A stretch of 64,000 nucleotides of DNA, taken from positions 23,622,001-23,686,000 of the forward strand of contig OX597822.1 in NCBI GenBank assembly GCA_951406725.2. The letters run 5' to 3'. The position numbers were made by a program, and so were the translations under genes. The DNA comes from Octopus vulgaris (lineage: Eukaryota). A model generated the notes under the pieces. That model saw only the letters and a program-made list of their open reading frames with translations. It searched no databases and was not told the DNA's origin. Below are positions 30,049 through 41,030 of this stretch, in pieces (within the stretch, counting starts at the first letter, position 1; each line of letters opens with the position of its first letter).

Positions 30049-30234
30049 ATATATATATATATATATATATATATATATATATATATACATATACATCGTG
30101 CTTCTTTCAGTTTCCGTCTACCAAATACACACACAAGGCTTTGGTCGGCTCGAGGATATTGTAGAAGACAGTTGCCCAAGGTGCCGCGCAGTGGGACTGA
30201 AACCGGAACCATGCGGTTGGGAAGTAAGCTTCTT

Positions 30235-31193
30235 TATTTCTTTTAAATTGCCATAAAGTCATTACATAGAAGGGGACAATACAACACATGTGGGGAGATA
30301 TAACAATTAAAATAGAAATACGATGCTATGAATGACACATGAAAATGAACATGAAAAACATTAAAATCAAAATATCAAAATAATGATACATGAATGATAA
30401 CTTGAGAAATGAGAATATGAAAAGAGTCCTGAGTCCTCTTTAGTCTTTGATCTAGTCTTTCGTTTACCGTTTTCCGCATCGCTGAGTGACAACACCCTCT
30501 CCTCCGTGTACATGTAACCATTTTCACCATAATGAGGTCCAGTTTTTTTCCTCTCCATCCTCCGTCCTCCGTTTCTGTGGCTTGGAGGACAGCCACCTCC
30601 TCCTCACTTCCAACGAGGATGGCTGCCGCAACCCCACCCACTTCTATATCTGGCGGAATTCCTTCTACCCTCACCTTGGAAGTCTTTTTTCCAAGGTACG
30701 TGGGTAGAAGTACCACTTCCTCCGTTTTTACAGTTGCACTTGTCAGCCTCTTTGCCTCCTCCGCTGTCCTAAGCTGGACAACCACCGTCCCATATCCACT
30801 TCCTTTCGCTATGTATGCTACTTCCTTCGAAAGCCCCTTCAATGAATTTTCTACTTTTTCCATCTCCATCCGCTCCACCTTCCTACTCTCCACTGTAGGT
30901 AATGGTCTTCTTTTCCATATTTTCCATATTTTCCCTAACCTTTTTCGGGGTTAATAACTTTACGTCACCGGCTAGATCCACCTCTGCAGACTCTTTACTC
31001 TTTCCATTCTCGTTCATTCTATTTACCGCTTTAACGAGCTTCTCCTCTGCTGAGGACAGCTCATACTTGCTAAGGTTCGAATACATTCCTTTCCACCGGT
31101 ACAACACTCACTAACAAACCGCTGCCAAGCAGCACCAAAAGTTTCCGCCCGACTCGTCAAAAATCAACATAGCAAATAGATCGACGCATGCGC
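30235..31193 (-). mobile_element. ORF1-only Tx1/L1-like retroelement with a 16-bp TSD
   Basis: TSD GGGAAGTAAGCTTCTT at 30219-30234 and 31194-31209; tail TATTGTCCCCTTC...TATGGCAATTTAAAAGAAATA. Confidence 0.85.
30520..31090 (-). pseudogene. Tx1/L1-like ORF1 (gag-like) N-terminal half, frameshifted
   Basis: YIAKGSGYGTVVVQL...VLLPTYLGKKTSKVRVEGIPPDI; homologous to 39020-39471. Confidence 0.7.
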
Positions 31194-31403
31194 GGGAAGT
31201 AAGCTTCTTACCACACAACCACCCGTGCGCCTATATATATATATATATATATATATATATATATATATATATATATATATATATATATATGTATGTATAT
31301 ATATATATATATATATATATATATATATATATTATATATATATATATATATATATATATATATATATATATAGAGAGAGAGAGAGAGAGAGAGAGAGAGA
31401 GAG

Positions 31404-31700
31404 AGAGGCGCAATGGCCCAGTGGTCAGGGCAGCGGACTCGTGGTCGTAGGATCGCAGTTTCGATTCCCAAACCGGGCGTTGTGAGTGTTTATTGCGCGA
31501 AAATACCTAAAAGCACCACGAGGCACCGGCAGCGGGGGGGGGGGGGGAGCCCTGCTGTTCTCTTTCGTCACAACTTTCTCTCACTGTTGGCCTGCTCGCT
31601 TAGCCAGCAGGGTGGCGTCATTTGAAGGCGAAAACAATGCGAAGCGCATTGTGACCAGCGATGTGTAGCAACATCTGGTAGCCTGGTCGGTCACAGTGAT
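31404..31700 (+). mobile_element. SINE-C (tRNA-derived)
   Basis: A box TGGCCCAGTGG, B-box-like GTTTCGATTCC; second partial copy at 20737-20912. Confidence 0.75.
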
Positions 31701-33117
31701 ATATATATATATATATGTATATATATGTATATATATATGTATATATATATATACGCACAGATAGATAGATAGATAGATAGATAGATAGATAGATAGATAG
31801 ATAGATAGATAGATAGATAGATAGATAGATAGATAGATAGATAGATAGATAAATACACAAGGTAAACATATCTATATAACTATGAAATGAGTATAGTTAT
31901 CAGGAACTCTAGAGTCAGAATTAATACGTAACGATAGTTGAACACACATCGTCTATACCAGACAATTCTTTAATTGCTTCAAATTTCCCCAAACAAGGCC
32001 ACAAGTTACTTTGTCGCAGCCTACGGAGGTGAAGGTTGTCAGCCATAAATGCCAGCAATATATATACATACATACATACATACATACATACACACACACA
32101 CATATATGTATGTATGTATGTATGTATGTATGTATGTATGTATGTATGTATGTATGTATATATATATACATACATACACATAGATACAGTTGAAAGATGG
32201 TTGTAAAATAATTGTTAAAGAGACGTTAAACATATGACGAGATAGTAATAAAAGAAGTGAAAGATTACTGAACTTATGGCAATAAAATAAAGTAACCGAG
32301 ATGACAATAAATGAGCTAATAAAATGGAAGTAAATAAGATGGCAATAAAAAGACACAAAAAAATGGGATAAAAATATTAAAAGGAAAGAAACCACAAACT
32401 TTACGTAAGCTGTAAGTTAACTGTAAGTTTGAACCAGTGTGCCGTGGAATGTGTGTGTGCCACGTCTCTTACACAGGTACCCGCGATTTTGTGTTTCCTT
32501 TTTCGGGAATCGGGGAGATGCTTAAGGTATTTAAAATCTTTTACTGATTTTAGTGTATTGTACCGGTATAGATGTATTTACTTACTTCCTCAAAGTCTAA
32601 CCGTTGACCTCATCGTGGTGGGAAGGTTAAACGAGTGAGTATCAGAGCTATACCGTCAGGTGCGGGGGTTTTGAGTCCATGGCAGGGTTGCCCAAGGCGG
32701 ACAGGTCTGATCTCGGCGGTGCTAGCGCAGGAACCCGGCTAAGTGGAGGGCAATAGTGAATTCCAGGCAGCATCTGTCCGGCGGCTTCCTGGTGGCGTTG
32801 AATCGCGTCTGTGGGCATTCTGCGGCGGGAAGACGTAACACGAAGATGATTTGCCACAGGTCGTGTATAGTGGCTTATGAATACAGACGGGAACTGTTTT
32901 CGCAGACTTTGATCATCCCTTGAAATCCCTATGAACTCAATATGAACGGGTTTAACCCTTCCCCCAGGTGCCGTTACAAGACAAAGAAGACTTATTTACA
33001 ACAATATACAATGCATGCTCCAGCTTTGATTCAAAGTGATATGAATATTTGTTATCTGTATGGTTAAAATCTTTCTAAAACGCTGATACCGTGCTCTAAC
33101 AATTCTAACGCCTTATT

Positions 33118-38554: not shown

Positions 38555-38886
38555 CTTTTATTATTTTACTTGTTTCAGTCATTTGACTGCGGCCATGCTG
38601 GATATTCTTTGTAAGCCTAGTATTTATTCTATCGGTCTGTTTTGCCGAACTGCTAAGTTACTGGGACGTAAATACACCAGCATCGGTTGTCAAGCGATGG
38701 TGGGGGACTCACACAGACACACAAACATACATATATATATATATCCGCCGGGCTTCTTTCAGTTTCCATCTACCAAATCCACTCACAAGGCTTTGGTTGG
38801 CCCAAGTCTATAGTAGGAGACACTTGTCCAAGGTGCCACGCAGTGGGACTGAACTCAGAACCATGTGGTTGGTAAGCAAGCTACTT
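38555..38886 (-). mobile_element. SINE-B, head interrupted at the target site
   Basis: Ends at GGTAAGCAAGCTACTT, then foreign sequence. Confidence 0.85.
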
Positions 38887-40178
38887 TAGTTCATAAAATT
38901 TGCTATGAAGGCATTACAAAGAGAGGACGAACAAGGACAGACAAAGTTTAAAAATTTATGAGGATAAATTTATGATTCAATTTAAAAATTACAAATTACT
39001 ATTTACAAATTACAAAGTGTGTGATCTGAAGGAAAGCGATTTATTCAGTCCTGTTATACAACAGGGCGGCCATCACTTCCCTTATATCAACTTCAGGTGA
39101 CACTTCTGTCACTCTTACTCGAGCACTTCGTCTCCCCATCTAGGTTGGCAGAAGTACCAACTCCTTCGTTTTTAGGGGACTCACTGAGTGCTCTTGGGCT
39201 TTTACTTCTGTCTCAAATCTGGCCTCTACTGTGCCATAAGTACGGCCCCTTACTATATACTTTATGTCTTCCCATATGGAGCCAGATATTTTTCAATTTT
39301 GCACTGCTCAAAGTGCTTAAATTTCTTTGTTGAATGACAGTATGTCCTTCTTTTCAATTTTTCAACACTAGGTGAGGGTGGTATTTTTATATCAACCCCC
39401 ATCCCTTCTTTCATTTTTTCAAAAAAGCCGGAGAGCTTTTCCTTTGATAGTTCGACGTTTTCAGTAGCCACCGCGGTACTGCTGAAAATTTCTTAACAGG
39501 CTCTTCCAGTGAATTTTTCTCTGAAAATATTTCGACCGACATATTCATTCGAAATAAATTTATACACAACTTAATCCCAGAAAACGGGAAACCTATAATT
39601 TTTTACATCTTTTTTCTCTCAACGAGGACAACAGTTCAAATCCCAACCCCCGCTGGGGGCGAGACGTAACAACAAAGTCTACAACGGTCGAAATTAAATT
39701 TTTCACACAATAATAAAAATACGGTATCCCCCAAAAAGGGAAACCTATAATATGTTTTATTTTTTATTTTCCTCACAACGAGGTGCCACAATAAAGCCTA
39801 GAACGGCTAGAATTAAATTTTTCACACAATAATAAACTGATTATCCCCCAAAACGGGAAACCTATAATATTTTTTTCCTCTTAATGACGATAACAGTTCA
39901 AATCCCACCCCCGCTGGGAGGCTGGGAGGGAGCCACGACAATAAAGCCTACAACGGCTTTAACCAGTTCAATATTTCAACAATGCACAACTGCAAAATTG
40001 ACTTTACACAAAGAATTACTTTCTCCCATCACCAGGATGGGAAATTTTCAAGGTTTAACAGTTCAACAATGTTTAACAGTTCGAAAATGTTCAACAATAA
40101 ACAGTCAACAGAAAAATTATCCAACGTTCAGCAAAACGTTTGACTCACCGCCAAAAACACACGTCTAAACACGAGACA
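38887..40178 (-). mobile_element. ORF1-only Tx1/L1-like retroelement with a 16-bp TSD
   Basis: TSD GGTAAGCAAGCTACTT 38871-38886 / GGTAAGCACGCTACTT 40179-40194; 5' UTR has internal tandem duplications at 39570-39960; SINE-A-like tail. Confidence 0.8.
39020..39471 (-). pseudogene. Tx1/L1-like ORF1 N-terminal half with stops and a frameshift
   Basis: Manual translation YIVRGRTYGTVEARF...LVLLPT*MGRRSARVRVTEVSPEV. Confidence 0.7.
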
Positions 40179-40194
40179 GGTAAGCACGCTACTT

Positions 40195-41030
40195 TATTTC
40201 ATTTTATTTGCCATAAAGGCAGTATACAGAGTAGCTGTGGGCTAGACAAGACATTAGTGAGGCGAATGATAATAATACAAGATGATAAAGATGGGAGAAA
40301 ACAGAAAGCGCCCGCCGACCCTCTTCTTATTCTCTTTTGCGACCCCCTGCTTCTTCTCTCTTGTGGCCTGCAGGTATTCCTGCAACCATCAATCGGAGCC
40401 AAAATAAAGTAATCTGTATTCCTCCTTTGGGAAGGATCTTGACCTGTGGAAAAAAATCTTTTCTTTCCAGTACCAGTGCAGTCACCTGCGAAGGCCACTC
40501 TGGGCTGTCAATAAAAATCGGGTCCATCAGAACCCGACAATCAAGATTATTCTCCACATACTCCTCAATCGCCCCTCCCCTGCGATAGAGGAATACAAAT
40601 TCCTCATCACTTTCATTGAGAGGGAACTCAAATACCTCGCTCGGTGGCACATATCCCACCGAGAAGGTTTCCTTCTTCTTCCCGTCCGGTGGCACACATC
40701 CCACCGTTTTTCTTTTTCTTCTTCTTTCTTTTCTCCTTTGCGACGGGAAGGTGGAGTTCCTCCGACATGTCCGGGGGTCCCTCCTCCCCTCCCGTCACCT
40801 CAGGGTCCACCGGTGGGCAACCATTGTTGCCACCTTCTTTCTCTTAGTACCTTTTCTCAAGGAGGTTACCTCCTCCTCGACTTTCTCCCTCTCTCCCTCC
40901 AATGAAGGAGCAGGAGGCTCCGTTGGGGGAACAGTGGGTTTACAGTCATCAATCAACTGTTCCAGGTCCTTCGCCTGGGTCCAGTAACAGTTCTTCTTCA
41001 TGTGCCCTGATTCCAGCACAGGTAACACTT
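40195..41030 (-). mobile_element. 5'-truncated ORF1-only retroelement stacked at the same site
   Basis: Frameshifted knuckle CYLCLESGHMKKNC near 40985-41027, ORF1 C-terminal region, then the tail CTTTATGGCAAATAAAATGAAATA abutting the TSD. Confidence 0.75.

Follow-up and report, generated by a model that had tools for sequence, protein, structure and literature searches.

A 64-kb stretch of the Octopus vulgaris genome (contig OX597822.1, positions 23,622,001 to 23,686,000; hereafter the window) harbors three insertions of long interspersed nuclear elements (LINEs) in the head of a short interspersed nuclear element (SINE) labeled SINE-B in the first-pass annotation. Window coordinates follow the numbering of this 64-kb stretch, and the LINE family labels I1, I2, I3, A, B, and C were coined here. 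The earlier claim that the three insertions occupy one position of SINE-B, in the orientation of the SINE, held at all coordinates, with elements and SINE all on the minus strand. Genome-wide, the element families were found to hold one fixed base of the SINE-B head, just behind an A-box-like motif. The features of the window that bear on this site are as follows.

23672..23687, minus strand: empty target, intact SINE-B head.
30098..30234, minus strand: body of SINE-B host 1, downstream of the putative nick; old AAGAAG...TTCCC subfamily.
30219-30234, minus strand: 3' copy of the 16-bp repeat of host 1; exact 16-mer match.
30235..31193, minus strand: insert 1, a family I1 copy with both ends; tail at 30235-30260.
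31194..31209, minus strand: 5' copy of the 16-bp repeat of host 1; exact match to 30219-30234.
31210..31231, minus strand: split-off head of SINE-B host 1, with the A-box-like motif.
38563..38886, minus strand: body and tail of SINE-B host 2; AAGTAG...TTACC subfamily.
38871-38886, minus strand: 3' copy of the repeat of host 2.
38887..40178, minus strand: insert 2, an internally deleted copy of LINE family I2.
40179..40194, minus strand: 16-bp repeat common to the 5' end of insert 2 and the 3' end of insert 3.
40195..41030, minus strand: insert 3, the 3' part of a copy of family I3, which has only the first open reading frame (ORF1); its tail adjoins 40194.
49806..49821, minus strand: empty target in a SINE-B head, one variant base.

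Insert 1 has lost ∼390–420 nt of ORF1, the zinc knuckle included, at 30528/30529. Insert 2 consists of a 5' untranslated region (UTR) with ∼117-nt repeats (39574-39958) and the front of ORF1 (39555-39020), followed by a jump to the 3' UTR near 39015, and retains only 1.17 kb of front plus the tail. Insert 3 contains a CCHC knuckle near 41020-40985, the C-terminal part of ORF1, the 3' UTR, and the tail; of the ∼2.05 kb of its family, it covers the 3'-terminal ∼950 nt alone, and it ends at a (CA)n/(TA)n run, its 5' end, 5' half, and SINE head being absent within the window. Insert 3 is stacked next to insert 2, as had been proposed, and the order of the two insertions is unreadable from the structure, which would be the same either way. 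The expected strong difference in DNA between the repeat-flanked inserts was also seen, as none of the three inserts gave a blastn match to another; the decayed ORF1 pieces of inserts 1 and 2 share 37% amino-acid identity across 84 residues. A Pfam search of the decayed ORF1 pieces of the window gave no match. Insert 2 is a deleted older relative of the young family A described below, and inserts 1 and 3 belong to ORF1-only families. Besides the two empty heads listed above, both foreseen in the first-pass annotation, further empty heads are present near 42195-42210 and 10255-10270.

SINE-B is ∼420 nt long with an internal microsatellite, and the insertion point lies directly after the GGT that trails the A-box-like motif. 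Comparison of the head with genomic tRNAs gave z values of up to 4.5 against shuffled sequences with the A and B boxes in register; no parent was found among the 30 tRNAs sampled, and the head had no ARAGORN or Rfam tRNA match. The genome contains at least 58,747 exact empty SINE-B heads, among which the TTCCC type accounts for 3,993 (6.8%); a sample of the first 100 heads overstated this old type (23/100). Ranking of empty heads by mismatches placed the AAGAAG-TTCCC type as oldest (5.0), followed by the TTA type (2.7), whose target forms an imperfect palindrome, and the TAA type (0.6). First-look searches gave 395–1,721 candidates per insert family. The inserts thus total hundreds to a few thousand, and only a small share of SINE-B heads is occupied. 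Owing to this low occupancy, SINE-B does not appear to be held back, and the head is better described as a safe harbour than as a point of SINE control, though the disabling of an individual SINE-B copy by an insertion is plausible.

The specificity for this site was evaluated by searches over the 2.8-Gb genome. The tail pattern without target bases yielded 236 exact matches, and the first 30 of these tails, chosen regardless of flank, were followed by the target at the first base in 29 cases and led into the SINE body in 25. The tail of family A gave 110 exact matches, and AAGTAG came next in 100/100 among the matches listed, in one case with a one-base overlap. Both reversed-pattern controls gave 0 matches. 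Of the best 30 loci of I1, 29 (window locus counted in) had the target on at least one side of the element, and the loci of I2 and I3 showed like flanks. In a scripted table of 106 tails, 9 were classed as misses, several of which proved to be shifted or gapped targets. The 3' flanks were thus not random T-rich sites, and nicking of a loose L1 type was rejected on the 29/30 and the 100/100 listed flanks.

The insertions were found to be independent events. The insert loci lie on different chromosomes, and the heads upstream of the nick carry private variants. Ten intact copies of family A differ by 1.0% and their host SINE bodies by 5.0%; the respective values for a wider family A set are 1.5 and 10.4%. 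Element versus host divergence was 11% vs 25% for I1, 10% vs 12.5% for I2, and 11% vs 14.5% for I3. Segmental duplication could be excluded since the hosts are 5–7 times more diverged than the young elements. Hence, the earlier suggestion that a lineage has specialised in a single site of an abundant SINE withstood both the tabulation of flanks and the search for a one-duplication origin. Three full-length family A copies were also found in tandem over 16.4 kb inside one SINE head (L278-L279; G000:C9:2664000-2682000), the most diverged copy being the furthest from the head; as regards a general stacking order, the upstream neighbours of five other copies gave no decision. Short insertions at L196/L197 and L220, in which the tail and target occur twice in opposite orientation within one SINE head, resemble a fold-back or twin-primed product.

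A genome search with reverse transcriptase (RT) revealed young intact relatives of the inserts, and the autonomous element with an apurinic/apyrimidinic endonuclease (APE) and RT that the first-pass annotation had called for was found intact as family A. This family (5.44 kb, ∼110 copies, ∼99% identical) encodes an ORF1 of 488 aa and an ORF2 of 1133–1150 aa without stops. Pfam analysis identified Exo_endo_phos (PF03372), RVT_1 (PF00078), and zf-RVT (PF13966), together with zf-CCHC in ORF1, and the catalytic motifs are present. The best PDB relative was human L1 ORF2p (E 5e-67, vs 7e-20 for R2). Families A and I2 share the characters of the L1 group, namely, APE, RT, and a C-terminal zinc finger, a separate upstream ORF1, target-site duplication (TSD), and the lack of long terminal repeats (LTRs). 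Judged by its coding sequence, family A is likely the driver of the lineage.

I2 copies contain portions of the endonuclease, RT, and C-terminal region, bounded by the same pair of ends and reduced by large internal deletions that vary among copies. Their RT pieces are 87–88% identical to A, and phylogenetic analysis grouped I2 with A at 100/99. Families A, I2, B, and C formed one group near an Argonauta protein, the nearest named RT homologue, with fish and cnidarian relatives outside. No named Tx1 protein was present among the 120 homologues listed or their clusters, and an atlas search returned generic RT clusters only. Membership in the Tx1 clade is likely, and the target preference of that clade (U2, microsatellite, transposon) was observed. 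The loop-tip "DG" of the endonuclease aligned with the Tx1L loop grafted in PDB 2v0r, in a loop of L1 length and with a score no better than that of L1. Many I2 and A copies (L121-L140, L230, L262, L265) keep both ends and lose large internal parts with differing breakpoints, in contrast to the 5' truncation typical of LINEs; the search was biased toward copies that have a 5' end.

The sister families B and C have 63–67% ORF2 identity and show (CT)n, U2, or sequence resembling the start of U2 as their 3' flank. Family B (L181-L187) is intact, with an ORF2 of 1138 aa that is 67% identical, and (CT)n came next in the 7 copies fetched, one end being only partly visible. Among three copies of family C (L188-L190), a complete U2 gene lies next to one, and the two others are followed by sequence beginning like U2. 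The copy at the complete U2 gene occupies its first base and is stacked behind another copy (L188:7345-7538, L188:1780-1840). It shows a 13-nt U2 duplication and then a 15-nt start resembling the family's other targets, which, in this one case, may be the same kind of target-like start as that described below for family A.

The ORF1-only families are amplified families of fixed length. I1 (∼1.45 kb) and I3 (∼2.05 kb) consist of a 5' UTR, ORF1 with one CCHC knuckle, a 3' UTR, and the tail; they have both ends and ORF1 and lack ORF2, as in elements of the HAL1 type, and at least three more such families were found. No ORF2 remnant was seen in 27 full-length elements (13 of I1 and 14 others from I3 and two further families), a count that leaves out 4 further I1 rows shortened by a false tail match. 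The ORF1s are only 24–36% identical to that of the driver, and these families are thus long-lived lineages and not recent deletions. The final 50–60 bases are alignable across all LINE tails and the tail of another SINE, labeled SINE-C. The shared tail and site suggest that the ORF1-only families would be mobilised in trans by a partner LINE. SINE-C is present in the window at 45058-45431, 800-1223, 6300-6760, 26205-26371, 51464-51701, and 54518-54737. In the window and the loci, 28 SINE-C tail ends were compared: 7 lead into another SINE-C copy at one and the same internal position, 2 into SINE-C close to its head, and 2 into sequence like the SINE-B target; from these flanks, SINE-C likely rides on a related enzyme. 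Elsewhere in the window, 13560-14480 (plus strand) holds a decayed ORF1-only-like piece with a zinc knuckle and 32% identity to the family A ORF1, inserted in a decayed transposase-like stretch (∼12800-13550), and 24383-24691 is a near-perfect inverted repeat with arms of 143 nt and a spacing of 23 nt.

On the evidence of these sequences, we propose, with a probability of about 0.88, that related LINE families accumulate at one fixed base of SINE-B as an autonomous endonuclease would nick this base and prime there, and that the ORF1-only families would borrow the enzyme via the shared 3' tail. The predicted endonuclease of the autonomous family would read the SINE-B head, nick the bottom strand at 5'-CTT/ACC-3', and prime reverse transcription on site. 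The top strand would be cut mostly 7–11 nt downstream and at times up to 16. The RNA would begin at about position 10–11 of a target-like sequence, so as to carry 6–7 target-like bases, and would be joined with an optional untemplated base. ORF1-only families may be served in trans through the homologous tail, and recognition may have shifted from AAGAAG to AAGTAG as SINE subfamilies turned over.

Such a 5' junction would account for the repeats that flank the inserts. Among 20 paired family A junctions, host variants at positions 11–16 were shared by the 5' copy in 0/25 cases, and in 13/20 junctions position 9 or 10 is followed by a single additional T; these two registers show no linkage to subfamily markers. 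Host variants were shared at position 8 in L265 and L266 and at position 10 in insert 1 of the window. In a set of 19 loci picked solely for a TTA-type 3' flank, 15 had a whole family A 5' junction, and the 5' copy was of the TAA type in 15/15; the remaining four comprised one other family, one locus with target bases lost, and two 5'-truncated copies. In family A, approximately the first 9–10 bp of the repeat are duplicated target, and the last 6–7 of the 16 bases are borne by the element. By visual count, the duplication is 7–11 bases long in about 11 of some 16 copies truncated at the 5' end. The earlier description of 16-bp TSDs around inserts 1 and 2 therefore needs to be divided. The repeats themselves are real, exact at 30219-30234 and 31194-31209 and with one mismatch between 38871-38886 and 40179-40194; their reading as duplicated target over all 16 bp did not stand, as part is element-borne in family A. 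In insert 1, at least 31200-31209 is duplicated target since position 10 bears the same private variant in both copies, and by analogy with family A, 31194-31199 would be the element's own first bases.

Each family begins with a variant of its own SINE subfamily, and an older A-like copy (L267) begins with the old variant, which indicates that the target-like start was updated over time; such updating may have come about through an occasional long duplication or through gene conversion with SINE heads as donors. A second target-like 7-mer occurs ∼22 nt inside the 5' end of family A (L173:1761-1830), and the sequence after it is homologous to the beginning of I2, as though an older 5' end had been extended by a short piece. 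The 5' ends of the elements were also inspected by eye for a B box or a downstream promoter motif at constant distance, and the spacing was not conserved.

The families also differ in the SINE-B subfamily that they occupy. I1 is mostly present in the oldest head type, I2 and I3 in TTA heads, and A in TTA and TAA heads; old families are thus in AAGAAG heads and young ones in AAGTAG heads only. Family A was first taken to be specific for the youngest TAA heads (10/10 intact copies), a notion rejected when the wider sample showed both TAA and TTA hosts. AAGAAG-type heads make up 0/45 of family A hosts, vs 26/80 empty heads in the same loci, and 0/100 of those listed, vs the 6.8% of exact TTCCC-type heads genome-wide; positions 1–6 are invariant in 45/45 hosts. 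Of 17 AAGAAG flanks encountered, the 12 examined (L198, L208, L268-L277) contained no family A sequence, their readable tails being those of other families. Age alone accounts for the absence of old families from young heads and does not account for the absence of A from old ones, for which a changed preference of the enzyme is the likeliest reading.

Several points weigh against the proposed mechanism or narrow it. Only the best 40 candidates were scored per search, which favours copies retaining the 5' end. Old heads are avoided less strongly than the local 26/80 suggests, given the low genome-wide share of TTCCC heads, and the avoidance is confounded with SINE age and region (decay, regional bias). 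Element-borne bases were demonstrated for family A only, I1–I3 being too decayed apart from one supporting case (L015). About 5 of the 5'-truncated copies match 13–16 bases (L105, L208, L021, L106, L266), some of which represent microhomology, and the top-strand cut is not fixed since L266 has a 16-base target-type duplication. Five family A host variants at positions 7–10 are unshared by the 5' copy (L226, L230, L261-L263); later mutation is the likely cause, and position 7 also alters in 5' copies alone.

The last two observations would also suit a different account of the 5' junction, in which the RNA carries a longer upstream piece of target, as in R2, that anneals, so that the 16-bp repeat would be a true staggered cut overwritten by the element's copy. 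R2 RNAs with up to 36 nt of upstream 28S sequence give uniform 5' junctions (PMC3774820), and the family C copy whose 13-nt U2 duplication is distinct from the 15-nt target-like start after it could be read likewise. Annealing would not yield the extra T in two registers, and the sharing of the host variants at position 8 (L265) and position 10 (insert 1) also speaks against it. No ribozyme family matched the 5' ends at E up to 5, the HDV-like ribozyme of R2 included, and no shared fold was detected among 8 5' ends, a weak test as minimum-energy folding misses pseudoknots. This account is on balance improbable, though it retains appreciable weight.

Alternatively, targeting could be due to a host factor on the SINE promoter, with TFIIIC or RNA polymerase III (Pol III) tethering the complex and a loose L1-type nick taking the nearest CTT/A. 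Pol III-linked targeting occurs in yeast Ty3 and Dictyostelium TRE5, and the location of the site at the edge of the A-box-like motif and of family C at the first base of U2 would fit. A tethered complex would not be expected to avoid AAGAAG heads or to keep positions 1–6 invariant. Moreover, no true tRNA gene followed the lineage tails examined, none of 30 sampled tRNA genes had an adjoining tail, sister family B uses promoterless (CT)n, and other elements, too, have copies stacked behind them, well away from any B box. Tethering is hence unlikely as the source of specificity. A composite unit of SINE head, LINE, and SINE body moving together, for which one could cite the ten intact family A copies all residing in TAA-type hosts with similar bodies, could practically be dismissed, being refuted by the contrast in divergence between hosts and elements, the private variants in the heads, the presence of both TAA and TTA hosts in the wider sample, and the retention of the head by 5'-truncated copies at many different truncation points.

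With cleavage by the lineage's own endonuclease as the preferred mechanism, the pairing of families and subfamilies permits a broader and tentative reading, rather doubtful as a whole, in which the LINE lineage chased a moving target from AAGAAG..TTCCC to AAGTAG..TTACC to ..TAACC, its families changing their endonuclease reading and recapturing the SINE variant as their own first bases, with a guild of ORF1-only families and a second SINE riding the same enzymes. If true, it would date successive steps in the co-evolution of one parasite with another, and an intact enzyme is available to test it. The targets of site-specific LINEs, such as rRNA and U2, usually change slowly, and the target here is a fast-turning-over mobile element. 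As old and young LINE families are both preserved, a change of endonuclease specificity can be traced in one genome, and the three intact sister enzymes, 63–67% identical and directed to a SINE head, (CT)n, and the start of U2, offer suitable material for mapping the determinants of APE specificity. The two-part make-up of the apparent TSD serves as a natural marker for the formation of the LINE 5' junction, a poorly understood step, and indicates that TSD lengths read from flanking repeats can mislead for site-specific elements.

Among known systems, Dewa reportedly resides in tRNA arrays, from which the SINE-B lineage differs in being absent from true tRNA genes next to the tails examined. 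The Keno site lies inside the U2 gene, and family C differs in occupying the first base of U2. Keno targets U2, Kibi (TC)n, and Koshi (TTC)n (PMC4494074, PMC4640811), and the sister families B, at (CT)n as in fish Kibi, and C, at U2, use the same kinds of targets. The retention of target-identical 5' bases by a site-specific element is similar to that of R2 RNAs keeping upstream 28S sequence (PMC3774820); R2 carries sequence from upstream of the insertion point through an HDV-like (hepatitis delta virus) ribozyme, and the bases carried here match the target downstream of the usual top-strand cut. Dada DNA transposons also have a conserved landing site in the A-box region of a Pol III promoter, in their case at positions 8–13 of true tRNA genes and not, as here, just after the D-loop GG (PMC8869645). 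HAL1, HeT-A, and Ag-Sponge are non-autonomous LINEs that possess ORF1 (PMC5786205), and like them, the families described here have a 5' UTR, ORF1, and 3' tail without ORF2 and were amplified at fixed lengths; unlike them, they are sequence-specific, several in number, and long-lived.

The 2026 annotation of Octopus vulgaris reports 13 recently active L1-Tx1 families, and the terms "target" and "nested" do not occur in its main text (PMC13282606). A LINE targeted to a SINE head was not found in the literature outside Repbase Reports, most subscription papers, and supplements. Tx1-clade LINEs that target transposons include Xenopus Tx1L in Tx1D and, in crocodilians, Tx1-Mar in Mariner-N4_AMi, Tx1-9_AMi in Harbinger, and Tx1-8_Crp and Tx1-4_AMi in LTR elements (PMC4494074). 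In common with these, the present lineage consists of APE-RT LINEs that occupy one set position of an abundant repeat and stack in tandem around a duplicated target, and non-autonomous riders share the target, theirs being SINEU-3 with an expected TSD of 16 nt (PMC4494074). It deviates from them in that the target is a Pol III SINE head and not a DNA transposon or LTR element, the preference is near-absolute (100/100 listed, against a threshold of 20% in PMC4494074), the riders code for ORF1, and part of the apparent TSD is element-borne. This guild of strongly site-specific LINEs is a variant of the known Tx1 strategy, to which the present analysis adds an intact likely driver, a start borne by the element, and the matching of LINE families to SINE subfamilies.

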